A stretch of DNA of 64,000 bases from Psammoneis japonica. Lineage: Eukaryota. Positions 11,391 through 34,261 of this stretch are shown here, piece after piece. Each line of letters opens with the position of its first letter. The first letter of the stretch is position 1. Where the stretch lies: NCBI GenBank assembly GCA_008632985.1, contig QPGO01000056.1, positions 1 to 64,000 of the forward strand, written 5' to 3'. The translations under genes were made by a program, and so were the position numbers. Under the pieces are notes generated by a model that was not told the origin of the DNA, did no database searches, and saw only the letters and a program-made list of their open reading frames with translations.

Positions 11391-12363
11391 GTGCTCATCC
11401 TCCAGAAATGCCATGGCATTTGAACAAGACAGTTTGAAGTGTTTGTTTTTGAATGCAAAATTGGTTCATGTTCACACCCGATTGCACATGAAAACAAGAA
11501 CATCAGTCACCATGATCAAAGCATGATGGTGCTGATGGCAGCAATCTTGACATTTCTCCAAAATGCAGTGGCCATCCATCCTCAAACATTTGATGTGCAT
11601 GTGACCTTTGATGCTTGACAAACACAATGATCAAATGAGAGCTTGAAGATGGACTGCCTCCATCACAGACTTGTGGCTTGATGTTTTCACCATGGCAAAG
11701 CACAGTGAAATTCAAGAAATGTGATGCAAATCACAAGCTTTTCATTTGGCCAAATTTGAGCTAAAAAAGTGGCAAATGATCCCCCGTGACATTGCTGTGA
11801 TTTCTAAAAAAAATTGATGATGTTTGCAGTGACCCAAAGGATGCCTCCTCTTGCAAAGCATGAAGATGTTGCAACAAAACAAGAGTCATGGCCTGCATTG
11901 AGCATTGACAATGAGCATTGACAATGCACCACATGAGCACTGATGATGAGGGGGGACCTTGGCATCAGCGAGTCTTGACTTGTGTGGGGCCGCTCCCCAA
12001 CCAGGGCTGCCATGGTTCTCTTGCTTGGCTTGAAGTCAACCTTGCTCTCTTCTTGATCCTCTTCTTTGTTGCCACCACTGACCACACCCAGCACTTCTTC
12101 AGCTGAGAGAGGGTCATCAAAACATTTCTTTGGGGTCAACTTGAGCTTCTGCACAGAGTGCTTTGAACTCATGCTGTGCTCCAGGGCACCACTCTGGAGC
12201 ATGGCTGCATTGGTTGTTCCTCCAGTCAATGGGGCAGTTCAATGAAGCTTTTTTTGCCTCCAGCACAAGATGAGACACTCACTTTCAGCCAGTCTCACAT
12301 CTTGCTTGTTCCCCTTCCATTGGTGGTTTGGCACCCTTTTGTGTCTTTGCCAGCACTGTGGGC

Positions 12364-13420
12364 TCAGCAGACTGCACCCTCTCCCCGGGCATGCAGCAGG
12401 AGCTCAGGAGACAAGAAATTTGTGAATTTCCTCTTTGTCATTGTTCCGCCTCTGCGGTGGTGTGTGAATTTTGATGCCTTTTGTTCTTGATCCTGTGAGC
12501 CCCACCTTTGCAGTCCTGTTGCTGTCTCTTGGTTTCTTGCTGGTGAAATCTTTGGCCACTCTTGAGATGTGCAGCCTGAGCAATGGTTGTCCACTTCACT
12601 TGATGTTGAGTCTGTGTTGAGTGCAATTTTGTTGGATTCAGTGGAAGCACTCTGCACCATGCATTCAGAATTGGATGTCTGTGGTGCAACCTGGACTGAA
12701 GGAGAAAGTTTGAAAGAGGCTGAGTGACTGGTGCATTGCTTCACATGCGCCACATCACCCAGCCATTTCCAACGTGCATCCTCTTTGGAGGATGCCACTT
12801 CTGGCTGATTGTGTGAGCTTCTGCTGCACTCCTTGTTGAGTGTGCTGGAAGTGTGGGCTGGCCGGCACCGGCCGGTGTTGCTGGGCAAAGGTGTGACAGC
12901 ACTTAAAATCAGGTTTGGGATTTTTTTGTGTTGAGAGCAATTTTGGTTTTGTGTGAGAGAGTGTGGCTTGATTGGCTGCCATGGCCATTGCCATCACTCT
13001 TGCCAGACTCCAAGGTTGCTGTTTCTCTTTCACAAGCCTGAGCACCTTGCATGGTTTTTGTTCAGTTCTTCTGTTTTAAAGTTGGTTGGACATTGTTTGC
13101 CATTCCCACTGAGGCCATTGAGCACTGTGCACTGCCTCCAGTTGTTGTCTGACATGTCTTGCTTGTTGCTTGAAGACAGCCCCAATGCATTGCACAGCTT
13201 TCCATCTTGTCTGCTTTGGGACATGCAATGGATTTCCATGTGGGGGGTCATTGCATGCACGTGGAATGCAGCAAGGCAGATGAACAGGACCACGTGAGCA
13301 TTGCAAATCATGATTTCACTGAATGCATTTGCTGTTTCACAGCAGAGGAGCAAGCAGATCACTGGGGTTGTTGCAATGATGTCATGCATCATGCTGTGTG
13401 CCACACAAATTGCAGTGCAC
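12364..13420 (-). mobile_element. Possible degenerate Copia-type LTR retrotransposon gag/protease remnant
   Basis: LNTDSTSSEVDNHCSGCTS (~12565-12620) resembles the (F)DTDSxxIGIDNRCSxCIS protease motif I recall from diatom Copia elements. The rest is too decayed to assign. Confidence 0.35.
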
Positions 13421-15479
13421 AAGCCAGCATGAGCACAAGGTCATCATGGCAAAGACCTTTGTCTTGCCCATGATCCTGCTGAGTGCATGCAACACTGATG
13501 GGCATGCTCACAAAGAGCCATTCAGACTCCTCCTCTGAGGGCCCTTGGCTGGCAATGGCAGACACACCACAGGCTTGGACTGGCTTGAGATGCTTGCCTG
13601 CTTGCTTCTTGTTGTTGTCTCCTTTTCTGGGCCTGCACTGTCATCTCTGACACTTCTCAGGGGTGCTGATGCACTGCTTGCCATTTGCTTGTGCAATTTC
13701 CCCACTGGTGTCCTTGTGGTGTGCCAATGGCGGGTCTTCTTGGACTTGTTTCATGTGCAAGCTTTGGAAAGCATCCTGTGCTTCATGCGTTGAAAGAGTG
13801 TTCTGGCTTTTCATCATCTTCCTTGGATCCCTCTTGCCTCTGGTGTTTCTTGGGGGTCCTTCTTGACCTCCTGCTCCTTCTTGCCCTTCTTGATCATCTG
13901 AGGTTTCTTGAGGGCCGTGAGCAAGCTCAGCTTTCAGGGAAGGGATCTTCTCCTTGTTGCTCTTGCTCAGGGCACTCCTCTTCTTCTTCTGAAGGAGATT
14001 CTTGCACTTGTCATTTGCCATGTTCATGAGTTGTGGTGCTGGCACATTCACTGCCATTGTCAGGCTCTTCCTGTGTGCAAGCAGCAACATGCTTGATGGA
14101 GACCTTGTTGGACACAGAGGAGCCAAGTGACCCTTGAACAAATTTGTTGGCAAGTCTTCAGTGGTCTCACCTCATGAGCTGAACACCACCAAGAGGATCA
14201 AGGCACATTTGCTGAACTTTGCAGTGACATGCCCAGTCTTTGGCAAGAACACATCAAGTTTTGCAAGATGGATCTGGTTGTGTGGCATCTGTGCTGAGAT
14301 GCTCTCTTGAAAATGGCCACCTTCAATGACGGGTTTCTAGAGGCATGGCCATCAACCTCATGCTCTTTCTCCCAGGTCCTGCTTGTTTTGTCTTTTGCCT
14401 CCTTAGAGAGTGTCACCATGGCTGCCTTGTGCACCATTCTTGTGTCTTGTGCAGTGCCATTCTGGCCACTGATGTGTGTGTCTCCTCTCTGGTGCTCCAA
14501 CATCTCCAACTCCATCTGCCCACAATCTTCTGGGACATTCTTGAAACCCCCACCACAATGAATGTCTGCTGCTGCTGCTGCTGCTGCTGTGCTGGGTCAC
14601 ATTTGGGATCACGGGCACCCCTCCTTCTCCAGCCCAGCCACGTTCAATGGCTCTGTTTTCCACCACCTCCAGGAGTTGGGATGGGTCCACGCCGGTCCAC
14701 AGAAGAGCACAGCTGAAAGACTCCCGTTCCATGAGCCCATCACTTGGTTTCACTCCAGTGCTGGATCTGTGGCCAACTGCTCTTTCATGTGCTTGAGCTG
14801 GCACATCAGCATGAGTGGTGCTGTGCCTTTGCTCCAAGCTGGCGCTGCTTGTGGAGGAAGTGCTCAACGTCATCTTTGATGCAGAGGAAGAGTGCTCCTG
14901 CAACAACGAACGTCAAAGACAAGTCAAAGAATCAGATCCCAGGGTGGCCAACAGCACCAGGTGCTGGAGTGACTCCAAGGGATTGGTTGTTGCCAAAGTC
15001 ACTCCAAGCAGATTTTGGGAGAAAAGTGTGAAGTGCACAAGAGACACACAAAGAGCTGTGCTTTGGCGGGCGAGAGGGGGCAGCGCAGCCACAGCAGCAT
15101 CTGACCAGGATCTGAGCAGCAGAGGAACACACATGCTCCCCAGCAGCAATGTGGCACCACTCCTTGCAGTGATTGCCTAAGATGCCTGCACCACTTCTTG
15201 CATTGGCTGGGAGCTTTCTCATCTCTTTCAGCGCAGATTGGACAGGAGCTTAATCTCCGGGTTCTCCATAGATGCGAGCTCCATCTCGAGGTCTGGTTCA
15301 ACCAACCAGAGATCTTTGCTTGCAGTTTGCAGGGGGCGAGATTGAAGATGCGTGAGCATTCGTTCAGAATTCAGAATCAAGAGACAAGAGGTGCACTGCA
15401 AGAGTTCGACTCAACGACTTGCTCATTGCTTCTCCACCTTGCTTCTCAACGACTTCCTTTGTGTTTTGAGCCGATCATC

Positions 15480-16238
15480 ATGCCTTCCAGCAGCAGCAGC
15501 AACAATAATAATCCAGCATCTGGTCGTCCTCGCTCCCCCACCGCAGTCGCGTCGACTGTTCATCCATCCGGGTGCACCTGTGGATGCTTGCACGTGGGAT
15601 TTCCGAAGGCAATCTACAGGAACTACAGGGGTGTCGAAACGTTCACGGGTGTCCTCATGCTGGACAGTGAAATGACTCTTTGGAAGTTGAACGACCCCCA
15701 TTACGATTTTGAAGAAGGAGCCACCCTGGCGAGTTTGGCGGGAACAGGACACTTGATGGGACATGACGAGTTCATCATGGAAATGGCATTGTATGATCTC
15801 AAGGATGGGACTCCCTCCTCCACCGTTCCGATCAAGAAGAATATCCCCTTTGTCGATTTCAGTGACAAGCCAGACGATTTCTTGTTCAAAGAGCGCGAGT
15901 TGGAGATCTTTGACGTCAAGTTCCCCCATGGAACTCTCGGGAGAAATTGGGTGATTCCAGAAATTCGCGCAGATGACACTGTCAAAGTTATGGTGAGCAA
16001 GCACATTCACATGGCAGGGCAAAATGCCAATGAACGTTTGTGGGTAAATGTAATTGGGGTGACGAACACGATGCTTGTCGTCGGGTCAATGTCGAATTCT
16101 ATTGAATCGCCTCTCATTCGGGCCACCCAATTCCCCGATGACCTTTCGGAAGATCCGAAATTCAAGGTGAAAGAGGGAGACTTGGTGGCATTTCCAGTGA
16201 CATGCGTCTTGGGGGTGGAGCACGGGGAGAACTGGTAG
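15480..16238 (+). CDS. Hypothetical protein with C-terminal DUF2314/YegJ-like motif
   Basis: Part of ORF 15198..16238; probable start MPSSSSSNNNN at 15480. C-terminus TVKVMV...NERLWVNVIG...VVGSMSNS...KEGDLVAFP matches the pattern of DUF2314-like proteins. Normal codon composition. Confidence 0.6.
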   Translation: MPSSSSSNNNNPASGRPRSPTAVASTVHPSGCTCGCLHVGFPKAIYRNYRGVETFTGVLMLDSEMTLWKLNDPHYDFEEGATLASLAGTGHLMGHDEFIMEMALYDLKDGTPSSTVPIKKNIPFVDFSDKPDDFLFKERELEIFDVKFPHGTLGRNWVIPEIRADDTVKVMVSKHIHMAGQNANERLWVNVIGVTNTMLVVGSMSNSIESPLIRATQFPDDLSEDPKFKVKEGDLVAFPVTCVLGVEHGENW

Positions 16239-17050
16239 AGTTGATCCTTCTTGAATTGGCAAAGGGAAACGTTGGGCAATCATTCAAGGGCCGCTATCGC
16301 ACGAGCGGAGGGGGGGGGTAATCGAGAATCGGGGATGGTGATCTTACAAACTAAATAAAATGTAATTCTATGCGATGTCTATAAGTCTGCAGTGTCCGTT
16401 TTGTGATTTAGCAGCAGGAGGTTTAAAATTCTGAGTGCGGTGAGGGATCGGATGTGCCTTGTGTCCGCTCATGATTTGAAGCTGACGGCATTCCTACTAG
16501 CACAATCAAGGCACCCCGGTGACGTAACTTCCAAAATAGAAGTAGAGAGGAATTTCGTATCATATGTAGCTGTTCCACTAACATCTTCGTTTGTCCAAGG
16601 GATCCAATCTGTTTCTTCATGGTAGGATGATGCCCGGCCCATTTGAAACCAATCTTCTCCAACCGCTGGGCCGCTTGACAGCCATGTCGGAATTGGGTAT
16701 TCTGTGTCCAAAAGTTGCGAGCTCTGTGTACAGAGAGTCTTCGATGTTTTGAAAACTAGCATTCAAACACTACTTTGTGTCTCCATTTGTATCGCTCGCT
16801 GAACTCGCATCAGTGGATAGTCGGCATCAGTACATAGAGCCGAATAATCATAACAGATCGCTGTCGTCTTGGCAAAAGGAGAGATTGAAAAGTCTAAGAA
16901 CATGACCGTTAGAGAGATCCCCAGGCATAATGAAGCATGATTATAGCGTTATTTAGTGTCTCGCACTTCTTTCTGGTCATGGGGAGGAGTCTAGTCAGAA
17001 TTGGCAAAAGGGTGCTGGAGAAGTTGAATATTTGCTACACAACTGGCGCT

Positions 17051-18313
17051 CTAGGGCCTAAGAGCCCTCTTAGCTACGACTAGACCCCTGGTAAGGTAGC
17101 TGAACAATTCGCACCAAAACTGCCCGGCCCTACTTGCGACTGGCCTCGACTCATTGAATAGAGCTATTGATGATGAGTTCATTATCGATCTGGACAACTC
17201 GCGTTTTGTCACAGTATGACGCCTGTTTCGTTCGTTTCTTTCCGTATGCACCCTAACCTTTCTGGGTGCCATGTCCATGAGCTCAAAAATGGAAAAGTCG
17301 TTCCAGTAGAGATTGGCCAGCGTGGAACAGTAGGGGCCGTCCATATTTCGGCCTTCTTGGAAGAACTCGACACATGCAGAGGCCGAGTGAACGCGAAAAT
17401 GAATTGTCACGTGCCGGAGATCCTGCTTTTCACCAAAAAAGACCAACAGTTCTTGGATCCGTTCCGTCCATGGTAACACACGTCCGAGATCCATGCGCTT
17501 CAGCTTGGGACAGGACAACAAAACTGAGATGTTTCAGCACCTTGGTTGGGTCCCAGTCGGATGTGTTGTATCCAGTGAGATTAGTGAACTCAACTCGTTG
17601 AAGATCAGGAAAGCAGTAAAAGATAATAGGGATGAGTAGGGCCCTAGGTCGATACCAGTATCTTCTTCTTTTTCTGCCCAGTCGGCCGTTGGCATTCCAA
17701 TTTCAAGCCATTTTGTGCTACGACTCGGGCAAATTGGAAGGTCAGCAAATATCTCATGAATCAAATCCTCAGGGGTGTTATCAAACTCGAATGTCCCTGC
17801 CAAGCAAGTTTCCACCCAGTCACGGGAAAAGTTGAGTTTTGACAAATGTTGCGGCAAATCAGGAATGGAGGCGAGATTGATGATGTTTTTCTTATCTGCA
17901 CTGCCACCAGGCCGTGTTGTTATCATAAGGTAAGAACCAATCGGGAGTACAGCGCTCATATTCTTCCCAACCGATCACTTGTCCACAATGGGCGCAGCCA
18001 CGATAACCGGACGCATCACTGCAACCTCCTACTCTAGGCTCCCACGTGATGTGGGTGCTGTGCGCAATTGACCGCATGGCAAAAGATCATCGCGGTTCAC
18101 GGCAAACCTACTCGAGCTACCGCTGATCGTGGACTGGGCGTATTTGTGCTGTTGGAAGAGCAGAACAGTGCCTGACGGGGCAGCTTTGCCGCCATCTCGA
18201 CAAGTAAGAATCTCGATTCCTTTGTTGTTGGTTTGGATTAAATCGTGATCCTCTCGGATTTGGACGTCGCGAGAGAGACGATGGCCGCAGGTTCTGCAAT
18301 ATAAATGAGGCAT
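17051..18313 (-). CDS. Yippee/Mis18-like Zn-binding domain fused to an LRR-like C-terminal region; frameshifted in this assembly
   Basis: MPHLYCRTCGHRLS...GCAHCGQVIGWEEY gives two CxxC plus the GW-x-x-Y motif. It is followed by IINLASIPDLPQHLSKLNFS...LQRVEFTNL...CPKLKRMDL...LRHVTI (LRR-like). Stitched from ORFs 18029..18361, 17892..18077, 17534..17959 and 17051..17521. Confidence 0.55.
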
Positions 18314-19052
18314 GAGTGTTTTGGTATAGTTTTTGTTTGAGAGATTAAAACAAAATATCAATCAACATGATCCGTTTTGTTATTCAGAAAACAAACGCTC
18401 TTTCTGCGGGTTCAGTCGCATCTCGTCCCGAAAATTGCCCAAACAGTGTTCCAACATCGCTCCATGGTTTTCCACTTGCCCCACCGCACCAACTTTGATT
18501 GGCGGTTTTCTGTAAAATCGTACGTGATGCTGGCTGGTAAAATTCGAAATGTCATGGTCATATGCTTGACATTGCGGTGATTTCTAAAAGTGAATGACAT
18601 GATGTTTGATGTTTGCAATGAGCAATGAGCGATAACGACTCTAAAAGAGACTTACTCTCGCTTCTCGCTCAAGATAGCATAGGGCCCTACCGGTACCTGG
18701 TACCTGGTATCAGTAGATCTTGATTTATTTTGCGGGACCCGCTCGCCAACCGGGACTGCGAAATATTCGCACGATCAACACGTGCTGACGTATAACATTG
18801 GTAACTCATCAAACCGGAATAAAAATTATAACCAATGAGGTAACGTGGAAGCTGGTATACTTCAACGCACGTAGGATCAATACCATGTCTTTTGTAGCTG
18901 ATCGCGAGGAAAGGTTGGCGTCGGAACATTTTTGAGTCACGCTTCCAACTCTCTTCACAAAAATGCAACGACCGAAGCAGCATCATCATCTTCTGTCGTC
19001 GCGACCATTGTTGTCAACTATTTCAACTTCTTCTGTAAAAGTTTCATAAATC

Positions 19053-19943: not shown

Positions 19944-22900
19944 CTATAGTGTGAGTCCGGCTTTCGAAAACATTTTCTCAAGACTCGCCAAGAGTTTGGG
20001 ATCACTCTGTGCCCCACTCTGGAGAATGAGCCGCACCTGGTTGGCGTGCGGCGACGATAAGATCCCTGAGATACGTTGCACAAAAAACAGCGTCGGATCG
20101 GCGATATCGGCAAAGGGGTCATGCGCACGTTTCTTGGCAAATTGCAAGCTAGAAAAGGTAGCGTCGTATCCAATGTCATCCACGTCAACGCCTAGAATGT
20201 CGTCATTGTCACGATCGGTCTCAACGGCGGTGGTGGGAGACGCGAGCAGTGTCACAACAATTTTGAGTGTTTCGGCCCAAACCTGCTGGCCATTTTCTTC
20301 GGCCAAGAGACGCTCGGGTGCGTCGCAAAGAAGCTTGGTCAAACCAACCACTTGCACCTTGGCATCCAAGCGCGAAGGAAGATCCTCGGTGAAACGGGGC
20401 AGCCACTTGTGTACAAGGACGTTCAAAGCAAGTTTATCCTGAAGCGCATTGAACTTGTCGAAAAACTCGTTCGGTCCAAACTTGCCTACGAAAAAGGCAA
20501 AATACTGCGTCGCCAAACGGAGATAGCGCTTCTGGTTTTGTTGCAGCAAGCGCGCCGCAATCAACTTGAACACCTCTGACATTTGGGGCTGAAGATTCTC
20601 GTACGGATAATATTCCGTCGCGGATGTGAGCAAGGCGTACGCACTGATTTCGTTGGCCTTGCTGGCGTTGAGCTTTTGAAAAATGCCGAGAACCGGCTCC
20701 AAATATTCCACCAAGTCAGTAGCGCTCTTTTGCAGATATGCCGACAAGAGACGAACCATAGGAGGAACGTTGCCGCCTTTGTGGTCCCACATGTCAGGAC
20801 TCAAGAGCGGCGTAAACAATTCTGTGTAGGCATCTCCAAGTCCAGCCGGACGGTACTCTAGGATCTGCGCAAGCAACTGAAAGACATACGGAGTCAACTC
20901 AGCGACATCCATCTTAAGAACGGTAAAAAGGTGAGTAAACAAGAGCGCTTCAAATGATGCCGTCATGTTGGGATCGGCCGAACAGACGGTTCGGATGAGT
21001 ACCGCAATGGATTCAAACATGTAATGATTGAACTGCGGATTGCGAGGATTCTTTGCCACCCGCTCCAAAGCCGCGGTGAGCCTTTCCAGAACAGTTTGCG
21101 TAATCGGTACAACGTTTTGTTTGGAAACACTGAGGGACCGCATCACACACTTCATGGCGTAGGCGTTCTCGTTGAGCTTGACATTGTCGATAATGCCAAA
21201 GAGAGCGGTGAAGAGCGGCGTGAGGAAAGGCTGAAGATCGGTGGCACCAAACTTGTCCGTGCCGTCTTGGTTCTTGGTGATCAGAATCCTCTCAACCGTA
21301 TAGGCCGCAAAGGTGTGAACCACAATGCTGGGCGAACCCAAGTGCGAGATCAAGAACGGCATCAAGGCGGTTAGCTGCGCCGTTGTAAACTGGTTGCGAA
21401 AGGTGCTGACAAACTTGAGGCACATTGCCTTGACCATGGGACGGGCGGCATGGTTGCTGTCCTGTAGTTCCGGGAGGATATGCGCAGAGAAGAACTCCCC
21501 CACATTGACTTGTTCGTTTACGGACGAAACGCCGCGGTTACTGCTCTCGGCTTCAATGGCAATGCACATCATGATTTGAATCTGTTTGAACGACACGATA
21601 ACGTAAGGTTAGAAAAAGTGCCATACAAAGAGACAATGGAATAACAAGGCACACAGACTGTCGCTTTTGACAGTACAATACTTACAGCCACATCCTTGGA
21701 TTTCCACTGGTTGACCGGATCCGCCGCATACGCGTTCAGCATGGCCCCGACATGCTGAGAACAAATGGCGGTGGTTTCAGCCTTGTGGTGCCTGCACATG
21801 CTTCGAAGCAAATCCTGACTGCACCAACGTCGAGAGTCACTGACCGCTCCTTCAATATCCAATGAAATGAATTCTGCGGGATCGTCCTCAAAGCGCTCCT
21901 CATCTACCTCACGAATCGCCAGATTGGGAATGACAATGCTGGTAATGATTTTCTCGAGTGTGATTTGTTCGACAATGCCTTGTTCGGGTCCGTCTTGATT
22001 CTTGAATAGGTCCTTGTGCATTAGCTTTTGCATGAGCGAACTCAAGAATCGAATAGAAATGGCCGCAAGAGCGTCATGCTTGGGCTTGGAAGACAATGCA
22101 ATCAAGAGTTTCCAAACGAGATCGATAAAGTTCGGGTCATGCCCAACCTGGATATAGTTTGCGATGAATACTTCTTCGTCGAGATCCGCGTGGTGCTTGA
22201 GGTTCTCAATAATGGCGGTTTGGAGTTTATCAACGGGACTGGGCTCGTCATCTTCGTCGTCGTCCACGAGAAGTGGATTCTTGTATTGCAAGAATACGGC
22301 AAAACCCGTCATCCACTCTTTGATGTGGTCCTCAAAGTATTCGGGAAGGTCCTGATATACCAAGGAGTAGTAAATCCGAGCAATAGAGTGCAATATGGAA
22401 AACCGAATCGTCAGCTGCTCTGGATTGTTCGCCAATCCCGCCACAGCTTGTCCCGTCGTCTGAAATAAAGCCAAGATTGGTTCTTGGACGCGTTCCAAAG
22501 AATAGATAAGGACCCTGTAAAGCTCTTCACTCCGCAGCACGTAACGGGAGCGCTTGAAAATCGAGTTCATCGTAATCAGCACGCCATCCACAACGGCGGG
22601 GTTGGGATCGTTGAACCTGCCCACCAAGTCCGCCAAGAGATTGTCCCAGTTTTGAGGAAAATCCACAGCGGCAATCAAACTAATCGCTTCAGAGCACTGT
22701 ACTCTGATTTGAGGCGAAACCGTACACATGAGGTTCACCAGGTGGGTCTTGATTTCAGTGCGGTGTTCCGGCGGGATCTGAATTCCGTCCGACGTGTCCT
22801 GAAGAGCATAGTATGGAAACAAATACATGTAAGAATACGACATAAGTCGATGTTATTGATCAAATTCTGCAGAGTCTTACCTCCCGGTTGACGTCCCATC

Positions 22901-23253
22901 CCTTTTTGACTAAGTTCTTGAAACGAATCGCCGCGGCCTGTTGCACAACAGGGTCCACCCCGTCCGCGGACGCAAAGACCTGCAACACGGATCTGGTATG
23001 ATTTGGAGACTTCAGATCCTGGTTTAGCTGCTGTTCCGCTGTTGATATTGAAAAGAGAGAGAGAGAGAGAGAGAGAGCAACGTTAGCAATACGCAACGTC
23101 AAAATCCATCAGCAGCGAGGGAGAGATTCCGCGTCGCTCGTTCGTTGCGCCGCGCCCTAACTCACCTGCAACACGAATATTGGTATCCGGCGATAGCGTT
23201 TGGGCAATGACAGCCTTGAGTTGGTCGGGCGTAAGTGATGCTGGAGCAGCCAT
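19944..23253 (-). CDS. CSE1: Exportin-2 / importin-alpha re-exporter (CAS), 4 exons, ~998 aa
   Basis: Exons 23253-23166, 23038-22881, 22798-21686 and 21581-19944, all with GT-AG, sum to 2997 nt. Motifs include AEQQL, QAAAIRFKNLVKKGW, DFPQNWDNLL, QDLPEYFEDHI, FEDDPAEFI, NPRNPQFNHYMFES and PYVFQLLAQ. Confidence 0.95.
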
Positions 23254-24165: not shown

Positions 24166-24361
24166 CACGCCGAAACGTGACGAAAGGATCGGATCACAAT
24201 GGCGTTCTTCATGTTTTGAAACTCGCAAGACTACAAGTACGGTATGGAATGGATGGCACAACGCACGCCGAAACGTGACGAAAGGATCGGATCACAATGG
24301 CGTTCTTCATGTTTTGAAACTCGCAAGACTACAAGTACGGTATGGAATGGATGGCACAACG
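24166..24361. repeat. Perfect 98-bp tandem duplication (2 copies)
   Basis: cacgccgaaacgtgacgaaagg...gatggcacaacg at 24166-24263 and 24264-24361. CG and TA are fully retained. Confidence 0.9.
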
Positions 24362-24623
24362 AAGGACCCAAACAAGAAGAGGGTGGCTAGGTCAGGCAAG
24401 AAAACGACTATACTTCTTGGCGACATTATTCGATTATAGACTAAAACATCACGTAAGAGCCTCGTACAATAATGTTGTACCGGTAAAAGTATAAACTGGG
24501 TGTCTCGACAACTCGAGAGCGAGACACAGGATTCGAATCTGGAAATTGTTGTATTGTCATTGCGCAGTAGTTTGGTTGCTTCAACCGATAGCGCTCTCTC
24601 CCAATAGCGCTCTCTCTCTCTCT

Positions 24624-25609
24624 CTAGAGCAAGAACCCGCATCGCGAAAAGAACCGGATGTAAATGCCTCGTGTTTGAAAGATGGCATTGAAGATTGCCA
24701 CCAAATATCCTAGTAGGACTTGGATGCAGTGTTCTTGGAAGAGCACCTTCAACACGAGGATAAGAGGGCTCATCACAGGGGTTAGGATAAAGCATGCCAG
24801 AACTGGGGCAATTTCACACTTGAGCTGAAGCATGATGCTCGGGGAAGGATTTAGCAATTGTTCAAGTAGGAGCTTTTCAATAATGAAACGAATGTGTTCC
24901 GCCGTGCAGCTGAACACATTGAGATTGAGTACTAACTCCCAACAGAGAACGTCCCAATGCTCGGGAAAGTCGACCACAGCAATCAGAATTATGGCATCGG
25001 ACAATTCCACTCTTATCTGACGAGGGACTCTACATAGGAGTTTCACAATATGGGCCTTGATGAAGTCTTGGTCCGCTTGTGGTATCACAATACCATCCGA
25101 TTTGTCCTGGAATGAAGGGTGGAATGAATCGATAATATAACGAGTTTGAAGTTTTCATGAAATGATGTGAGGAAGTTTTCAGAGAAAGCCAAAATTCAGC
25201 TCGATCCTGAGCAACATTACTCACCTCACGGTTTTCGTCCCATGCCAGCTGGACGGCCTTCTTGAAGTTTTCCGCTGCTACCAGTCGCTCGGGAAAGTCG
25301 TGTCGTTCCGAGTTCGCTACAATCTCAAAGAGGTTTCTGACACAATGCGGACGAACTGTTTTCTCTTTGAAAACGCGTTCAAATAGGAGGGTACAAAGCA
25401 TAAGAAGTGAGAAATGACTAGAGCAACGCGGTTTCAAACAAATTGTCGCTGTATAACGGTCGAATCCGTCATTGGCCTTGGTGTCGAAAACGGCGCAAAA
25501 CGCGGCGCGCACCGGAACACTCACCATCTAGATAGGCAGTCATATGAGGTGGCACTACCTGCTCAGGATTTGTCTCGGCTCCGTCGGCGCTGAGTTGCGG
25601 CGACGCCAT
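24624..25609 (-). CDS. Truncated CSE1 N-terminal (IBN_N) paralog 1 with novel hydrophobic C-terminus, ~235 aa
   Basis: Predicted exons 25609-25525, 25364-25225 and 25106-24624 (708 nt, in frame). AAENFKKAVQLAWDENRE|DKSDGIVIP...IKAHIVKLLC...DFPEHW aligns with CSE1 and keeps the CSE1 intron-2 position. Confidence 0.75.
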
Positions 25610-25864
25610 GGTGCAACGTCGTTTCAAAAACAACGGAGTTTGAAAATGTGTCGACACGCCGCTCCACATACACACTCAAATTTGAATTCGCGCGCGTTTT
25701 GCCACGGCGCGCAGCGCGCTCTACGGATCTCAGATCACAGACAGTGCCCGGTGAAGAATCTTATGATAGAAGTACCTTAGAGTCTACAGTACCAGGTAGA
25801 AGCATGATCTAGTATGTCAAAGTGCCATCTAGTACTTCTTGTTAGCTAAAATACTTCTACAGTA

Positions 25865-27690
25865 TGATGACAAGCCAAAAGCACCATTGCTCTTTCAACG
25901 AAACAACAAGGACTGACAGTCAAGGCCAATGCCACACCGCTTGAACGTTTAGTCGATTGATTGCAGCGTCAACAATTTCGCTGAATATATTTCATTCCTA
26001 AACGCGCAAAGCTTCCCCAACAATAAAAATTCTGGTCCGTCCCTTGTGACCAGTCTTGACGTAGAGAGGCTGCCATGGATTCGCTGCTCGGGTTCCGCTT
26101 TTATCAACAAACTGGCTCCGCTAAACCAAACACTCACACCAAGGGTAGAACCGGTTGTAAAGACCGTGCATTAGAGAAGTGACATTGAATCTTTCCATCA
26201 AATGTCTCGGGAAGAATAGGAGTAATGCGTCAATGGGGAGAGCTGCCGCAAAAAGAATCGCTGCAACCACAAAGACTGCACCCCACCAGATGGCTAGCAC
26301 AAGAAAGACTGGAATGCTCTTGATCATCAAAACAAGAACAGGGGCACAAACGTACTTGTAACGATGCATGAAGCTTGTTGAGAAAAAGTCGAGTTTACAA
26401 CTTTGCTTCATAACTTGGTTCATAATGGAACAAATACTGATCGACGCCAGGCCGCCGAAACAATTGTACTTGTGCGCGAGCACCCAAAAAAGATTCTTCC
26501 AATGATGGGGAAAGTCCACTGCAGCAATCGCAACGATGGCCTCGGATATCTCAGCTTGGACTGGAGGAGAAGCTCTACAAAGGAGGTCCACTATGTTCGC
26601 CCTGATGAACTCGCGGTCGTCTGGTGGAATCACAATGCCATCCGATTTGTCCTTTTAAAAATGATTCGACAAAATACGAGGCGTTACAAAAAATAACGAC
26701 GTTTGTAGTTAAGCTAATTCGCATCAACACCATTGTCTTACCTCGCGGTTTTCATCCCATGCAACCGCGACAATACATCTGAAGAGGTTCGCTGCGGCGT
26801 GACGAATAGCAGCGTCTTGAACGTTTTCAACAACATCAAAGATGTTTCTGGTGAAACGTGGGCACTTGAGACACTTTGAGTATTATTCAAAAAGTAAGAG
26901 ACAGGAAAAAGATGTTAGAAGTAACCTAGCAATGCGATGATTCATACAAAGTTGTCGTTTTAGCGGTCGAATTGCTCATTGGCGTCCACACCACGTGCCC
27001 AATGTTGACTGCGTCGCTCCAGCAGAAGCATACTCACCATGGGAAAATTCAAATCAGTTAGTATCGTGTTGTCATTGTTTGTCTCGGGTTGATCAGTGCT
27101 GATTTGCTTTGACGCCATGGTGCAATGCCAACACGAGGATCTCGATGTCGGTCGTGTCGAAGTCCGCTTTGAGCTTGGCGCGCGTCGAAACATCGCGGTT
27201 CGCAGTGCGCCCGGAACTCGCGAAACCACAGGAGAAAAAAAGGACCACTCATGCAAACGCCAGTTCATCACGAAAATTGACTTGTTCAGATGAGACACAC
27301 TTCCAAGAAGGGGCGGGGGGCAGTTGGAGGAAGAGTTGGTCGGAATGTGTGAAGAACGTAGAACCTAAAGTACGGATCCACCAAAATACTACGATTTTTG
27401 ATGATTGATGTACAGCCACGGCGCTGTATCCATCCAACATGCTGACGAGGATCAAGATTGCTTCTTAATAAGCATCAATTACTAAATGAAATGTCATTGA
27501 CTACCTTGCCATTATTTGTTCAATCTTTCTGCGGGAGATCAGTCGTCGGGAAAATTACACGAAACTCATCCGCGCAAAAATTAACACGGACGTCCAGCGT
27601 GGTATGCCTGCTGTACAAACGAGTTTCTTGTGTGAATCAATCACTTTGAGACTCTCTGGCATGCATCGGCACCAGAAGCCCTCGATCGGC
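25865..27690. repeat. Segmental duplication, homologous to ~29992-32485 (CSE1-fragment gene plus RraA locus)
   Basis: Colinear from tgatgacaa(g/a)ccaaaagcacca through the CSE1-like gene and promoter to ggcatgcatc...cacca(g/a)aagccc. This copy lacks the RraA CDS. Confidence 0.85.
26121..27118 (-). CDS. Truncated CSE1 N-terminal paralog 2 with C-terminal transmembrane-like segment, ~247 aa
   Basis: Predicted exons 27118-27038, 26873-26742 and 26651-26121 (744 nt, in frame). IRHAAANLFRCIVAVAWDENRE|DKSDGIVIPPDDREFIRANIV...DFPHHW, then VLVLMIKSIPVFLVLAIWWGAVFVVAAILFAAALPIDALLLFF. Confidence 0.8.
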
Positions 27691-28087
27691 ACATTCAACG
27701 CCCGATGACGGATGCGAAAAGCGAGAAGCGCAAGGATGACCTTGAGTTTCGGGGAGCCCGTTTTAACCATCGACACGCTTTGTGTCGGAAGACACAGGCT
27801 CTACCAGCTAGAGCGATAATCTAGCGTCTCTTTATGGCAAACATCACACTCCGACCGTCCATCAAGAGCAACGATTCATCCCGAGCAAAGCGCAACAATC
27901 ATGGTGATTGCAGATGCACAAGTCCCGCGCCCTATAACCAGCTACTGTAGGTGGCGTGCCATTGCTGGAGTTGATTCGAATTCCCTTTCTCTCTCTTACC
28001 CTCACCCCGAACAAAACGATCACGAACGCACCCGTTTAGCCTAAATACGAAACCGTGTTCTGCCAACTCGATGCAACACCCCTGCTG

Positions 28088-29463
28088 TCACGTTCCATCC
28101 CTTGGTTCCAGAGTCGAAGGAAACGGAGACATGGTTGGTGCCTCCTACGTAACGGTCGGAGCCGACGAGGGTGCATTTTCGCAACATTGAATGGCAAACT
28201 CTTGAGCAAAGCTGCAATCAAATTCACCCTCGGGATTGTTGGCGGTGAATTCAATCTCCCCACAATCAATATCAAACTCATCCAAGACAATTGTGAGATT
28301 GGAAATGGGTACAATATCCGTGCCTTCGCAAATGCGACAAGCGTCTTGATTGGCAATGGGATTGTCGCAGCCGCAAAAGACACCCGCGGTGCGTTGAAAT
28401 GCGGGACAAATATCATTTGTGGAATCGAGAAAATACGCCAATCCCGCCCAGTCCAAACAGGTTCGATTAAAGGTGACTTCTTCTGATAGCTTTTCAATCG
28501 CCACAGCCGACCCATCCTCACAAAGGTCACAAAATTGTATACCCGAGGTACAACCGCAATTTTTGACACCGGCATACCGAACCGCATCACATTGATCCGG
28601 TTCCAATGTTCCCGTAGCTGCCAACTGTTGAAGCTCGTAGCAATTGAGCGTGCCATATCCGGCTTGTCCTGCTAAAGCTGGAGCTTCCCACGAGTCTCGT
28701 GGAATTAATAATTCGTCCAAATTTTGCTGCAAACACAAGCCAGTACAAGGAGTGTCAAGGAAACCGTCGGAACGGGTGGAAGAATGCAACCACAAAGTGT
28801 AATGATATCCTCAAACACACCCTTGTTTTCTTGGCAAGTCGTATCGTCTGCAAACAATGTAAATTGCCGTTCCACTTCACCGCACGTGTACTCGTCTTGC
28901 GGAATAAAATCCGGCGCAAATCCCTCCAAGATTCGATCGGAAAAGGGTGTCGAATTGCCCGTTCCGCACAAACCACACGAAACATCGTCAATCGAAACAC
29001 TAGCACAGCCACAATAAAAGCGATATTGCTCAATATCGGTACAAAGAGCTCCATCTTGACTGGCTGTTTCTTGTAATTCGAAACACGTAACTGGAGTTTC
29101 ATCACCCTCTCGGTAAATCGTTCGATTGGGAAACAAGAGATTGTCGCCACTCGTGCATATTGAACATGCCTTGGGAGTCGCTGTAGAACTATTATTATCG
29201 GTGCTGGGAGAAGGTGTGGTGATTGGAATTCCCGTTGGTGGGCGTAGCGTAGTCGTGGTGGGTCGCATCGTGGTTGGAACAAGAGACGGCGACGCTGCAA
29301 TTGTGGTCGGTTGAGTTGTTGTACTTGCTGGTGTAGACGTATCCTCATCATTACTGTCACTATTGTTTCGATTGGCAAAGGAAACTGCCGTGGTGATGAT
29401 TCCCGCCAACAAAAACATACTTCCCAACGCCAGCAAAATAGTGAGTGTGCTCAAATTCTTCAT
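28088..29463 (-). CDS. Secreted/surface protein: signal or anchor peptide, Pro/Thr-rich stalk, five diatom-type Cys-rich repeats
   Basis: ORFs 28705..29463 and 28145..28795 join by one frameshift near 28770. Five repeats of CxxC...TC...C...CGC. Hydrophobic N-terminus MKNLSTLTILLALGSMFLLAGII. In-frame TAG at 28145 followed by 18 more PT-type codons to TGA at 28088. Confidence 0.8.
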
Positions 29464-30086
29464 AATGATTTATTGTTTGATTATGGAATGCACATGCAAT
29501 GAAACGTAATAGAGAGTGTGTCGTGTGCTTTTTCTTGTTCCAAAAGAGCGTGTACCGTATTTGTTTGATCATGGCCGTGTGATCGTGTCAAAAATTTCGA
29601 ATGCGAGAGGCGATGGGTGGACGGATGATTTTCCGTTGAAGGTTGAACGGCAATTCTGATTTGTGTTTGATGATGAGATTTCTTCAACAGCGAAATGTCT
29701 ATTGAAGTGTGCGACTTCGCGCGAACAGAGAGCTTGGCGAGGTCCGCCCAAATCCATCCTGACAATCTCGAAATCTGACCAACTATGAGCCTCGTACTAC
29801 GGTAACTATATGACGTTGTTTTTCATGCAAAACGTCGTTCTCGTTCAGAGTAGAATACTGCCTGAAAGTTTCTCGGAGTGTCAGCTTCACGAGCTTGAAC
29901 AAAGAATGTGAAGGCATCCAACTGCGAAATGTGTGCTTTTTCTGCACTCCTCCCCATCTTTTCGGTCAAATTTATTCTGCCAAAGTGAATGTGATGACAA
30001 ACCAAAAGCACCAGCACTCAAAATACAAGAAAGAATGACAGTCAAGGCTAATGTTTTACTTCTTGACCGTTTAGTTGATTCCAACA

Positions 30087-31176
30087 TCAACTGTTTCGTC
30101 CCTTGCGACCAGTCTTGAGTCTTGATGGAAGAAAGGCTGCCATGGACGGGGCCTTGGGTTCACTTTTTGTCATCGGACTGGATCCGCTAAACCAATAGCC
30201 AAACGAAGGGTAGAACCGATTGCACAGGCCGCGCATTAGAGCCATGACATTGAATCTTCCCATCAAACGTCTCGGGAAGAAATGGAGCACTGCGTCAACC
30301 GGGAGAGCCGCCACACAAATAATAGCTGTTACCGCCAAGCCTAGAACACACACGATGGCTACCACAAAAAAGACTAGAACATTCTTGATCATCAAAACAA
30401 GACTGGGTGCCAAAATGTACTTGAAACGAAACATGAAGCTTGTTGAGAAAACATCAATTTCGTACTTTCGTTTGGCAATTCCTTTCAAAATGTCGCAAAT
30501 GCTGTCCCGCGTCAGGCCATCGAGAGGATTAGCCTTTCGCGCGAGCACCCAATAAAGATTCTTCCAACGCTTGGGAAAATCCACTACAGCAATAGACACA
30601 ATGGCCTCGGATATCTCAGCTTGGACTGGAGGAGGAGCTCTAAAAAGGAGTTCCACTATGTTCGCCTTGATGAACTCGCGGTCGTCTGGTGGAATCACAA
30701 TACCATCCGATTTGTCCTTAAATGATTCGAGAAAGCACGAGGCGTTACAATTAACGCCATAATGATATTTTCAGTTCAAGCTACTTTGTATCAACAACAT
30801 TGTCTTACCTCGCGGTTTTCATCCCATGCAACCCGGACAATACATTTGAAAGACTCGCTGCGAGTTTACGCTCAGCAGCTTCGTGCGAGTTTGCAACAAG
30901 TCAAAGAGGTTTCTGGTGAAACGTGGGCACTTTTGTACCTTTGAGTATCATTTTTAAAAAGTAAGAGACAGGAAACGAATGTTAGAAGTAATCCAGCAAT
31001 GCGATGATTCGTACGAAAAGGCCGTTGTATCGGTCTCGTTGCTCATTCACTTACGTGCCAATGCCGGCTGCGTCGCTCCAACACAAGCACACTCACCAAG
31101 TCGACATTCACATCGGATAATATCGTGTTGTTGCTGTTTGTCCGGGTTGGCCAGTGCTGATCTTCTGCGACGCCAT
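30087..31176 (-). CDS. Truncated CSE1 N-terminal paralog 3 (close duplicate of paralog 2; 1-nt frameshifts in exons 1-2, pseudogene or assembly error)
   Basis: MASQKISTGQP... start. WDENRE|gtaag intron retained. Last exon 30087..30716 reads IPPDDREFIKANIV...DFPKRW plus the hydrophobic VFFVVAIVCVLGLAVTAIICVAALP. Confidence 0.7.
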
Positions 31177-31550
31177 GGTGCAAGTGTCGTTACAACATGG
31201 TCGAAGTGTGTCGATGGCTCGGTGGAATTTGAATTGCATGCGCGCGTAAAAACATCGCGGCGCGCGGAATTCGAATCCAAAGAAGACCATACATTGGTAG
31301 CAAACGCGCCAATGCCAGTTGATCATGATAGTCGTAATACCGGTATTCTTGTTCAGATTGAGCAACCCTTCCAGGGCGGGTCGCGGGGTAGTTGGAGGGA
31401 GGGCTGGTCAAAATAATGTGTGAAGCACGTGGCACCTAAAGTACGCGATCATCGATGGTTGATGTACACGGCGCTTCATCCATCCAACACGCCGACGATG
31501 ATCAAGATTGCTTCTTAATAAGCATCAACTTCTAGATGCCATATCATTGA

Positions 31551-32311
31551 CTATGCGTTGTCGGAATCGTTTACCCCATTCAATTGTAGAGCCGATTCTT
31601 TCCCGCTTTTGAGAGCATCCAAGTGCTCCGCATAGTTTGTCATGGAGTGCAGACTGTGGCCGTTGGATATACCAACCATAATGTTGTCTTCCATGGCCTG
31701 GATGTATTGCGCTGTATCCAAAATTTGCTCAAAGGTAGCGGCGGACGCCACAACAATTCCATCATCATCTCCTACCAGTATGTCGCCCGGAGACACTTGG
31801 ACGCCACCGCATTCAATATCAACTTGCGATTCTCCTAGCGACTGAACAGTTCCAGAGTAGGGCTGACAGAGCGTGAAAAGCACCAAACTCCATTATTTTG
31901 CAAAGAAGAAACATCTCGCATGGGTCCATCAATCACAATTCCCGCCAGTCCTTTTCGGGCCGCTTCACTCGCAAACAGACCTCCAGCCACAGCTCTTGTC
32001 GAATCGAGTGTATTCGCCACCAAAATTTCGTCAGCCTCTGCTTTGTCGAGGGCTTGAAGAACCGGGAAAAAGTCATTGGGTGTCTTGAATTGAACGGTTC
32101 GTGCTACTCCAACCATGACTTTGTCCGGGCTGGAATTGAGAGGTTTTAGACCCTGCAACACGCGGAGGCCGTTGTAGTCCGTTTCTTGCTTGCCACGCAG
32201 TGACTTGTCCGCGTCACAAAGACAAGCTGTATCTAAACAACGAAGCTTCTCCATCAAATCAGATGTGGTTTCGGTCGACACGTTTCGTGCCGTTTGTGAC
32301 CTTGCCATCAT
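31551..32311 (-). CDS. RraA-family protein / HMG-CHA aldolase-like (one frameshift near 31860)
   Basis: LDTACLCDA...VGVARTV...AVAGGL...GLAGIVIDGPMRDV...FSRSVSP continues as YSGT...DIECGGVQVSPGDILVGDDDGIVV. A single C is missing in a C run. Confidence 0.85.
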
Positions 32312-32505
32312 TATTATTGTTCAATCTTTTGCGAGAGATGAGTCGTCGGGAAAATAACTCGAAACTCATCCGCACAAAAATAAACAGAACGTCTAGCGTG
32401 GGTATGCCTGCTGTACAATTGTTTCTTTTGTGAATCAGTCAGTTTGACACTCTCAGGCATGCATCAACACCAAAAGCCCCTTGACATCGCGGCACATTTG
32501 CGACG

Positions 32506-33532
32506 ATGAGCGATGACGACAGTACCGTAGGAGAGGCGGAGCGTTATCACACCACAAAATCCAGTCCCGTCCGCGATCACTTGTGGCGGGCAGACATGCT
32601 GAGTACAAAATGTGTAGAAACGTACTGTACAGACAGACGGAATTCTACAAGTACGACTCAATTTTCGACGAGGACAAGTGGCAGTTCAGAGTGGCGATCG
32701 TCGATCGTGCAAAGTTATCAAAGACCTGTGACGGCGACACAAGTTTCAAAGTAGATAGTTTTCAAGAAGAGACAACATGTCGGAATGGTTACAGAAGCGA
32801 AGGAAGCGGAGCAACAAGCGAAAGGCTGGTGGACCGGTGGGGACCGAGGCTGTGGCTCTCGAGCAAATGGAACACAACAAGCGCAATTTCGGGTATCCTG
32901 AAGAAGGCTTTGAGACCCCGATAGAATACACCCTTTTGTATTCCATGATTAAGGAGGGTCCCAAGACGTATCCTGCAGAACTCGTGATGGAGCAGATTAA
33001 AGACGAAGGTTTTCGACAGTACATGTACGTAAAAAGGAGTAAATTCGAAAAGGAAGACGGGCAACCCCGAGGCTCGTATGGACAACTCAGTGCTATTCTG
33101 GCATTGTCTTCGGTTCATTGGCCACCAAAGGAGGAATCTGGGGACAACCAAAATGAAGACAATGTTGGTAAAGTGTTGTGCAAGCAGTTGTTGAAATGCA
33201 TAGTTCGGTATGCCGAGAAAAATGATTTGGACCGAGAAACAGAATTGCAACAATTCTTCCAGCCCGTCGAAACCTACTCTATCAAACGTGAAAACAAGGC
33301 GGCACTGAAAAATATCATGCCAATGTACATTGGATATACCGCTACCATCTTGACTGCTAATCCTATTCCACTATTGGTGGGTGTATCCATGACTGTCGGT
33401 GATAAAAATCAGTTGAAAGCAGCCAATGAGAGGTCAAACGTTAATTCCTTTGCGGTCGAATCGGATCGCCGAGCGAATCCAGAAAAGACGTCTTTGTTGG
33501 ATGAAGGAGAAGACTTGTATGAATCAGATTAG
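32506..33532 (+). CDS. Hypothetical protein (three overlapping frames, probably one gene)
   Basis: MSDDDSTVGEAE... (32506) continues into frame 32583..32924 and then 32777..33532. C-terminal hydrophobic stretch YIGYTATILTANPIPLLVGV. Confidence 0.6.
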
Positions 33533-34020
33533 AATGTTGCAATGTGTCCTGAATGGAGGCTCTAGCTTGGGATCCCATGTGTAAAAGAAGCCCTTCCAAC
33601 AGCCTTCCCTGCTTGTTTGAATTGCGCAACTAAGCCCAGGCAACGCTTTTGTACGAGGAGAAATCAAAGGCGAAAAGACAGCATTCAATCTATGCGAAAT
33701 GTGTTTCTTCCATCAGATTGGAGCTGGTCAGCTTGAGACCACCAGAGTGGAGAGGACCAATGACGCCCGTGAAAGTACATGGTGTATGTAAAGTAGAGCT
33801 TGTACGAATCTGATTAGAATGTTGCAATGTGCCCTGAAAGGAGGCTCTAGCTTGGGCTCCCATGTGTAAAAGAAGCACTTCCAACAGCCTTCCTGCACCA
33901 GGAGAAATTAATGGCAAAAAGGCAGCGTTCAATCTACGTGAAATGTGTTTCTTCCATCGCATCAGATGGAAATTAGTCTGAAGTCAGCTTTGAGACCGAC
34001 AGAGTGGAGAGGACCAACGA
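33511..34020. repeat. Imperfect tandem duplication of the gene 3' end and downstream flank
   Basis: cttgta(t/c)gaatc(a/t)gattagaatgttgcaatgtg...gagtggagaggaccaa at ~33511-33760 and ~33797-34017. Confidence 0.85.
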
Positions 34021-34261
34021 GACGAGTGAAACTAAAGTAGAGATTTTCATTTTTTCTTCTTCCGGGCGATAACAGCACAAAACTTTATCCAAAATCTGCC
34101 TAAAATCGACTGATTTTGGAAAGTCGCGCGAGAACAACTTCGAAACATCCAACATTGAACATCCAACCATCCAACATGACAGAAGATTGTTGGCACTCGC
34201 GACAGTGTCTGTTTGATGTTGTCTGTTGACCTTGCTTTACTATTTTAAGTAAGGCAGCAAG

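Follow-up and report, generated by a model that had tools for sequence, protein, structure and literature searches.

Three tandem partial copies of CSE1 with a predicted membrane anchor in the diatom Psammoneis japonica

In the window analysed here, comprising the initial 64 kb of contig C57 in the 91 Mb genome of Psammoneis japonica, three genes derived from CSE1 (CAS, exportin-2) are located on the minus strand upstream of the full-length gene, as a first-pass annotation of this DNA had claimed. They are designated P1, P2, and P3, and their coordinates are listed in Table 1. The copies constitute a real, partly expressed, and lineage-restricted gene family of unreported architecture, in which a short HEAT-repeat fragment of CSE1 is followed by a hydrophobic tail, while constraint between the two youngest members is weak. 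The explanation that we favor, tentatively, is that they are young membrane-anchored modifiers of the Ran/CSE1 system, neither transporters nor ordinary RanGTP binders.

The parent gene serves as the reference for comparison. The reading frame of CSE1 is open over 998 aa after splicing of four exons, the Pfam domains IBN_N, Cse1, and CAS_CSE1 all score above cut-off, and a genome-wide search with exon 3 returned it as the sole full-length match. Diatom proteins are its best named homologues, and the 66 homologues of 930-1060 aa among the 76 found were used for comparison. Acceleration of the parent itself was considered and rejected, its median identity to the others lying outside the 12 lowest of 67. 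Each copy possesses three exons and both of the first CSE1 introns; the second, a phase-0 intron at NRE|D, had already been noticed as common, and the first is common too. The encoded proteins of 235-247 aa are about a quarter of the length of CSE1, with approximately 110 aa of each being CSE1-like. A profile of the 66 diatom-like proteins matches the copies with E values of 2e-31, 9e-30, and 2e-29, aligning them to positions ~26-141 of 981. The homology had previously been drawn as far as the DFPxxW motif, but it extends approximately 10 residues further and ends firmly at profile position 141. Synonymous divergence (dS) is 1.0-2.0 between CSE1 and the copies, 0.6-0.9 between P1 and P2/P3, and 0.21-0.25 between P2 and P3. 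Judged from these synonymous distances, the branching order is (CSE1,(P1,(P2,P3))). All three copies go back to a single duplication event that took only the 5' part of CSE1. Intron 1 of P1 can still be aligned to intron 1 of P2 and P3, and self-BLAST of the P2 unit against the unit of P3 plus the neighboring RraA-family gene gives 75% identity over 1515 nt, a jump of 800 nt, and then 84% over 185 nt.

Table 1. Coordinates of the genes, duplicated units, and segments discussed in the text (positions in the window unless a locus is named).
Feature	Coordinates	Strand	Description
Parent CSE1 (exportin-2)	19944..23253	-	exons 23253-23166, 23038-22881, 22798-21686, 21581-19944; 998 aa
Copy P1	24624..25609	-	exons 25609-25525, 25364 (or 25355)-25225, 25106-24624; 235 aa (233 with the alternative acceptor)
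P1 hydrophobic segment 1	24750..24812	-	residues 174-194; 21 uncharged aa; hydropathy 2.28, borderline
P1 second uncharged segment	24672-24728	-	19 aa
Copy P2	26121..27118	-	exons 27118-27038, 26873 (or 26864)-26742, 26651-26121; 247 aa
P2 transmembrane-type segment	26232..26318	-	residues 183-211; 29 uncharged residues
P2 duplication unit	26032..27681	.	copy of 30091-32479 minus the RraA gene, deleted at about 27503
Cysteine-rich, Thr/Pro-rich gene between P2 and P3, unrelated	28145..29463	-	no Pfam match at E<=1
Copy P3	30187..31176	-	exons 31176-31097, 30938-30809, 30716-30187; 247 aa counting four read-supported letters
P3 transmembrane-type segment	30297..30383	-	29 uncharged residues; hydropathy 3.09
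RraA/aldolase-family gene, passenger of the P2/P3 duplication	31551..32308	-	Pfam PF03737, two pieces
Open Ran copy	L016:1894-2418 (C21)	-	175 aa, 69% identical to ordinary Ran
Three broken Ran copies	L017:2388-3500 (C40), L018:1462-1985 (C54)		two in tandem

The CSE1-like part is not an intact N-terminus, as had been supposed. Exon 1 of the copies remains in frame with exon 1 of CSE1, yet it is polar and rewritten. The former acceptor of intron 1 is gone and the next AG downstream is used; as a consequence the helix bearing R27, A30, E31, and L34 (94-98% conserved) has been lost. What is held comprises HEAT 2, HEAT 3, and helix 4A, in what we take to be the importin-beta numbering. Among the 30 positions between residues 48 and 140 that are at least 90% conserved, CSE1 keeps 27 and the copies keep 19, 19, and 21. 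When only identical residues are counted, 13/19 non-polar invariants but 2/11 polar ones are kept in all three copies (P=0.01). On helix 2B, N71 (100% in the 66 homologues), K74, and Q63 are altered in P1, P2, and P3. Retained are K70 and E119, or near equivalents, together with the motifs of HEAT 3, which is the best-kept stretch (83% identity between P2 and P3). Examined exon by exon, IBN_N remains below the Pfam cut-off (18.8 bits in P1 against 21; no match in P2 exon 2), a genome-wide IBN_N scan gave CSE1 as the only match on the window contig, and a Cse1 or CAS_CSE1 domain match is absent from exon 3 of P1, P2, and P3 in Pfam. Since the non-polar core is kept while the polar invariants are lost, we infer that the fold is preserved and that the Ran face is rewritten or lost. 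An AlphaFold2 model of P2 exon 3 built from three sequences was too weak for fold or topology (pLDDT 56, pTM 0.31), and Foldseek with this model gave no match at E<=0.001, 1wa5_C ranking fifth with E 1.8.

Beyond the CSE1-like part, all three copies carry an uncharged stretch of 21-29 residues. The highest Kyte-Doolittle means over 19 residues reach 2.28, 2.74, and 3.09 for P1, P2, and P3, compared with 1.54 for the CSE1 of the window and at most 2.23 for the 66 homologues. The stretch is thus clearest in P2 and P3, as was originally described, with P1 borderline, and hydropathy supports its prediction as a membrane-type segment. Basic residues are present on both of its flanks, so that on sequence grounds it could cross the membrane once or form a hairpin. 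In P2 the segment lies inside one long helix predicted by the low-confidence model. The tails of P1 and P2/P3 are homologous (0/300 shuffles reach the score) and terminate at the same stop codon; therefore the tail arose once. With regard to its origin, no similarity to CSE1 is detectable, in agreement with the earlier description, but unrelatedness does not follow, because a CSE1 segment drifting freely at dS of ~1 or more would be unrecognizable. A weak in-register CSE1 trace extends over 24 residues past the end of homology in P3 (P=0.013), with P=0.06 in P2 and none in P1 (P=0.37), and an ungapped match to yeast Cse1 runs to residue 83 of exon 3. The faint trace of helix 4B in P3 suggests that the tail derives from the decay of CSE1 and not from a clean fusion. 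Comparison of the tail with the CSE1 profile by position-specific scoring matrix and hhalign remained at shuffle level (probability 0.6%). Derivation of the tail from CSE1 in a shifted frame was rejected, being unproven: a 17-nt match near the diagonal scores 9, and blocks far from the diagonal score 7-12.

Searches for relatives of the tail were negative within their respective ranges. A tail profile obtained 0 matches among 1.84 billion representatives, and Pfam gave nothing beyond YlaC at E 0.44. In the ESM Atlas the best value was 0.89, with Xpo1/Cse1-like clusters at 0.87-0.88, all below the 0.9 mark and of use as a lead only. Homologues of P2 exon 3 numbered 0 among 204 candidates, and 0 of 158 pattern matches were confirmed in a metagenome scan. 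A DNA search of the same genome recovered P2 and P3 only and missed P1, hence it is insensitive. Among 120 of the 122 short CSE1-like proteins no second instance of the architecture was found. A long or hydrophobic tail occurs in 20 of those screened, none of them being hydrophobic after a break before profile position 190; the hydrophobic tails begin at positions 267-445 and resemble intron read-through.

Contigs from three runs (X1, X2, and X3) of one sample were compared with positions 24600-32500 of the window; X3 contributed nothing, and a further 86 substitutions and 22 indels fall outside the listed differences. An X1 contig is identical to the window over 24600-25646, which includes P1, and overlapping X1 contigs link P1, P2, the cysteine-rich gene, and P3. 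The idea that P2 and P3 are alleles was rejected, as separate X1 contigs connect each of them to the gene lying between them. In P3, the contigs restore single letters at 31141, 30900, 30850, and 30193, resulting in a protein of 247 aa that is colinear with P2 and shares the position of its stop codon with P1 and P2. The frameshifts of P3 are mostly assembly slips and P3 is not broken. As had been noted, P1 and P2 are open once spliced (splicing predicted), and no fixed stop or frameshift is present in any copy: P1 is identical to X1, P2 is open, and P3 is restored by the reads, possibly excepting one exon 1 allele. It should be noted that between 28768 and 32330 real genes are interrupted by many single-letter assembly slips, of which 12 are listed and 22 more counted, with several located in short runs.

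Run X2, labelled 'DNA?' by guess, omits P3 intron 2 precisely (92 nt, CT..AC on the plus strand), and its loose ends at 30939 and 31095 correspond to the junction of P3 exons 1 and 2. Because intron 2 is skipped exactly, the exon 1-2 junction is present, and the listed pieces fall on gene bodies, X2 is read as RNA. Positions 25833-26565, comprising P2 exon 3 and its 3' flank, are covered by X2 with 35 substitutions and 10 gaps relative to the window; 12 of the 13 listed differences over P2 fall in the 3' flank, and the single listed coding difference is synonymous. The 3' untranslated part of P2 extends to about 25833. X2 does not cover P1 or P2 exons 1-2, which was not used as evidence. Splicing is accordingly seen in this RNA-like run for both introns of P3, while P2 is covered in exon 3 only and the splicing of P1 is predicted.

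On the explanation preferred here, one partial tandem duplication spanned exons 1 and 2 of CSE1 and half of exon 3. The duplicate then lost HEAT repeat 1, retained a module from HEAT 2 to 4A that would be folded, and acquired a hydrophobic C-terminal anchor with a new stop, and further duplication occurred twice, giving P1 first and then P2/P3. Because a hydrophobic N-terminal leader is absent, the anchor would be inserted in the endoplasmic reticulum or nuclear envelope, with the HEAT module facing the cytosol or nucleus. Such a module, without cargo capacity and poor at ordinary RanGTP, would act as a tethered modifier within Ran/CSE1 export, its putative target being either a variant Ran, described below, or the parent receptor in trans. 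Cargo-free CSE1 closes through its N-terminal repeats. The same features could also belong to working membrane proteins whose HEAT fragment is a generic helical scaffold or binding face outside nuclear transport. A core kept while polar invariants are lost, a rewritten exon 1, a tail without homologue among the 1.84 billion representatives, and frames that are kept all speak in favor of such proteins. The best-kept stretch is nevertheless still HEAT 3 of CSE1, and the genome turns over copies of Ran; this alternative, the strongest of those considered, is judged unlikely.

Analysis of selection provides the evidence on whether the copies are maintained. P2 and P3 differ at 151 sites in 741 nt without a stop (neutral chance 0.01-0.03), with 0 gaps in coding sequence versus 11 gaps of at least 3 nt in 768 non-coding columns (Fisher P=0.001; 0.016 for frameshifting gaps only). 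The replacements between them are more conservative than neutral (P=0.009). Although the anchor differs at 26 of 102 nt, its hydropathy has been maintained or increased (P=0.0009 starting from P2, 0.06 from P3). At the deeper splits, the ratio of non-synonymous to synonymous divergence (dN/dS) is 0.35-0.59 for P1 against P2/P3 and 0.18-0.42 for the copies against CSE1 over 83 codons, with a one-ratio estimate of 0.42 for CSE1/P1/P2 (P=5e-5); purifying selection on these splits is supported by the sequence comparison. The coding comparisons show selection on frame, core, and hydrophobicity, while elsewhere relaxation is not separable from a mixture of purifying and positive selection. The first-pass hint of selection is supported by the frames and the deeper splits; between P2 and P3, dN/dS is ~1. 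That annotation had also named dN/dS near 1 together with disabling mutations as a sign against its reading; the former is seen between P2 and P3, whereas fixed disabling changes are not.

Several observations count against a maintained function. Between P2 and P3, dN/dS is 0.9-1.2 overall, and in a likelihood test no region differs from 1. The proportions of non-synonymous (pN, 0.20) and synonymous differences (pS, 0.19-0.22) match the intron and flank divergence of 0.16-0.23, and differences are spread evenly across codon positions (47/54/50). With P1/P2/P3 alone, a one-ratio dN/dS of 0.65 was obtained for the CSE1-like part (P=0.07) and of 0.93 for the tail. A signal of positive selection between P2 and P3 (M2a class with dN/dS ~4, P=0.0003) cannot be told apart from rate variation, as a two-rate model with dN/dS=1 fits equally. 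Of the two contigs that X1 and X2 each provide there, only one carries the exon 1 letter that opens P3; the other allele is listed elsewhere or frameshifted, and a null allele may segregate. Broken pieces of CSE1 on contigs C215 and C148 also indicate that debris of host genes is not rare in this genome. These points would suit duplicates that were once useful and are now expressed but dispensable and drifting, with their frames surviving by chance, by gene conversion, or because junk protein is weakly selected against. The possible null allele of P3, the non-standard AAG acceptors in the copies, and the broken pieces of CSE1 and Ran elsewhere all fit this account. It must be set against 247 codons without stop or gap, the conservative replacements, a stop position common to all three copies across dS 0.6-0.9, and the location of the copies outside the TA/CG-depleted DNA that houses the broken Ran copies. 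Drift is regarded as rather unlikely.

The wider state of the Ran system in this genome offers a context for modifiers of Ran/CSE1 export. Four diverged copies were retrieved with the ordinary Ran gene (C15) as query, one open and three broken, and the broken ones sit in DNA from which TA is nearly absent (ratio 0.00-0.03). The open copy ends short of the C-terminal tail, two codons of its G3 motif are missing, and where its switch regions differ, human Ran agrees with the ordinary gene. Its dN/dS against ordinary Ran is 1.2-1.6. When its changes are polarized by the broken copies, pN/pS is 2.7-3.5 under strict polarization (142 codons, 25 dropped; P 0.02-0.06) and 1.5-1.9 by majority (162 codons, 5 dropped; P 0.06-0.21). 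A disproportionate share of its changes falls in switch I/II, helix 3, and the basic patch (26/63 vs 24/106, P=0.009), over the residue ranges that we assume for these elements. The few controls gave 0/16 Arf-family matches with stops, one locus for eIF5A, two for NTF2, and three for RanBP1. Four IBB matches were obtained, including an importin-alpha with 36% identity to the main one and a pair of near-identical copies of a more distant relative. Two loci (L021 on C295 and L022 on C26) that are 99.7% alike across 3.5 kb both hold a distant importin-alpha-like gene, that on C26 being frameshifted in the assembly. This context is suggestive, and the CSE1 copies would belong to a lineage-specific turnover of Ran-system duplicates.

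Here too, some results weigh on the other side. The excess in the open Ran copy reaches P below 0.05 only with strict polarization and a transition weight of at least 2, any gene under relaxed constraint changes faster at its surface residues, and the Ran copy and the CSE1 copies are linked by their shared pathway alone. No extra NTF2 copies were seen, the two NTF2-family loci being without stops, and no young importin-alpha copies were found by the IBB profile, which misses copies lacking IBB. Genetic conflict behind the copies is plausible by analogy. A more specific version, in which the switch-altered, tail-less Ran and the anchored CSE1 fragments form a rapidly evolving side branch of the Ran system private to the diatom lineage, the fragments serving as receptors or antidotes at the nuclear envelope in a conflict at meiosis or gametogenesis, is considered improbable.

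The first-pass annotation had regarded the copies as membrane-tethered Ran-binding decoys. In Kap114 and importin-9, Ran is held mainly by the b-helices of repeats 1-4, in addition to the h8 loop and h12-15 (10.1101/2022.11.22.517512), and Kap114 is described as structurally near Cse1 (10.1101/411223). Repeat 1 and everything beyond repeat 4, the h8 loop and h12-15 included, are missing from the copies. Intact b-helices of repeats 1-4, in the repeat numbering that we assume, are likewise absent. Tight binding of RanGTP by CSE1 itself is known only jointly with importin-alpha. Binding of the copies to ordinary RanGTP appears doubtful on these sequence features, and the earlier proposal of it is not supported, given the loss of repeat 1 and of all parts after repeat 4 and the retention of 2/11 polar invariants. 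Repeats 2-4 lie in the Ran site of related karyopherins (10.1101/2022.11.22.517512), the copies retain K70 and E119, or near equivalents, along with the motifs of HEAT 3, and a truncated tandem copy of RanGAP acting through mislocalization is a precedent (PMC8645118). Decoys binding ordinary RanGTP in the manner of CSE1, draining or misplacing it, are nonetheless the least probable explanation in view of the losses just listed, those of N71, K74, and Q63 in all three copies, and IBN_N scores below cut-off.

Compared with CSE1/CAS/exportin-2 of known structure (PDB 1wa5, 1z3h), the copies share the HEAT 2-4A core, the DFPxxW motif, and two intron positions; they differ in being without the Cse1 and CAS_CSE1 domains and repeat 1, and in the added hydrophobic tail. 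They cannot be export receptors. Truncated paralogues of the microProtein type act as dominant negatives, and the copies resemble them as a fragment possibly interfering with the partners of the parent, while being larger and, by prediction, membrane-anchored, with interference putative. A further parallel is Sd-RanGAP of Drosophila melanogaster, which is described as a truncated tandem duplicate of RanGAP that keeps its activity and acts through mislocalization (PMC8645118, PMC11285756). Like it, the copies are C-terminally truncated tandem duplicates of a Ran-cycle gene, and their membrane-type segment, as judged from hydropathy, may have changed their location. Sd-RanGAP, however, keeps its activity and loses an export signal, whereas the copies have a rewritten face and an added anchor, are three in number, and are old (dS ~1 from the parent). 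High turnover of Ran in Drosophila with truncated and dead copies is reported, germline conflict is proposed, and the fast turnover of nuclear-transport duplicates is described for Drosophila and not for other insects (PMC8645118). The diatom resembles the Drosophila duplicates of Ran, Ntf-2, and importin-alpha in that Ran copies are born and die, some truncated, with fast protein change. The Drosophila duplicates are mostly retrocopies, in contrast with the diatom CSE1 copies, which are DNA tandem duplicates, and no extra NTF2 accompanies them. CSE1 is not among the eight duplicated gene classes that the source names, and a whole-word search of that text returned neither Cse1 nor CAS (PMC8645118). 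At most, the diatom genes would work in the way of these Drosophila duplicates. Truncated or membrane-anchored CSE1 copies and Ran turnover in diatoms were not found in the literature searched, which was covered through listings and the opening parts of abstracts and with few subscription papers.

Some further features of the region were observed. A single X1 letter at 31863 fuses the pieces of the RraA-family gene into one frame, and the two frames of the cysteine-rich gene become one through a letter at 28768 that X1 and X2 both supply. The latter gene is covered by X1 and X2; its product has cysteine-rich repeats, a hydrophobic segment at the N-terminus, and a Thr/Pro linker, and a loose end at 29177 hints at a paralogue elsewhere. 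Between the start of CSE1 and the stop of P1 lies a perfect 98-bp tandem duplication (24166-24361), and a non-coding, diverged tandem repeat of ~285 bp with 71% identity occupies 33514-34034. Depletion of CG (0.40) and TA (0.21) was observed over 9750-18570 and stops short of the CSE1 copies; TA/CG hypermutation as the force shaping them was rejected, the CG ratios of the copies being 0.86-1.02 versus 0.40 in that neighboring domain. The broken CSE1 pieces on C215 (L006:1512-1860) and C148 (L011:1481-1837) are 350-nt fragments of exon 3 at loci 99.3% alike across 3.1 kb, and their opposite strand continues directly into an ABC-ATPase-like frame, with motifs judged by eye. Single-letter slips hide real genes in this region, and other 'pseudogenes' in the assembly may be artefacts of the same kind.

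The copies are a clear example of how a partial duplicate can give rise to new membrane proteins, their membrane location being predicted by hydropathy. The predicted architecture, with the N-terminal part of a karyopherin attached to a membrane, was found neither in the literature searched nor among the 120 short CSE1-like proteins screened. If the version with a private side branch of the Ran system is true, a karyopherin-beta fragment would have been turned into a membrane receptor, in parallel with the nuclear-transport conflict of Drosophila in a distant unicellular lineage. A diatom with a Drosophila-like signature on Ran and on the exporter of importin-alpha would provide an independent case for testing the conflict idea.

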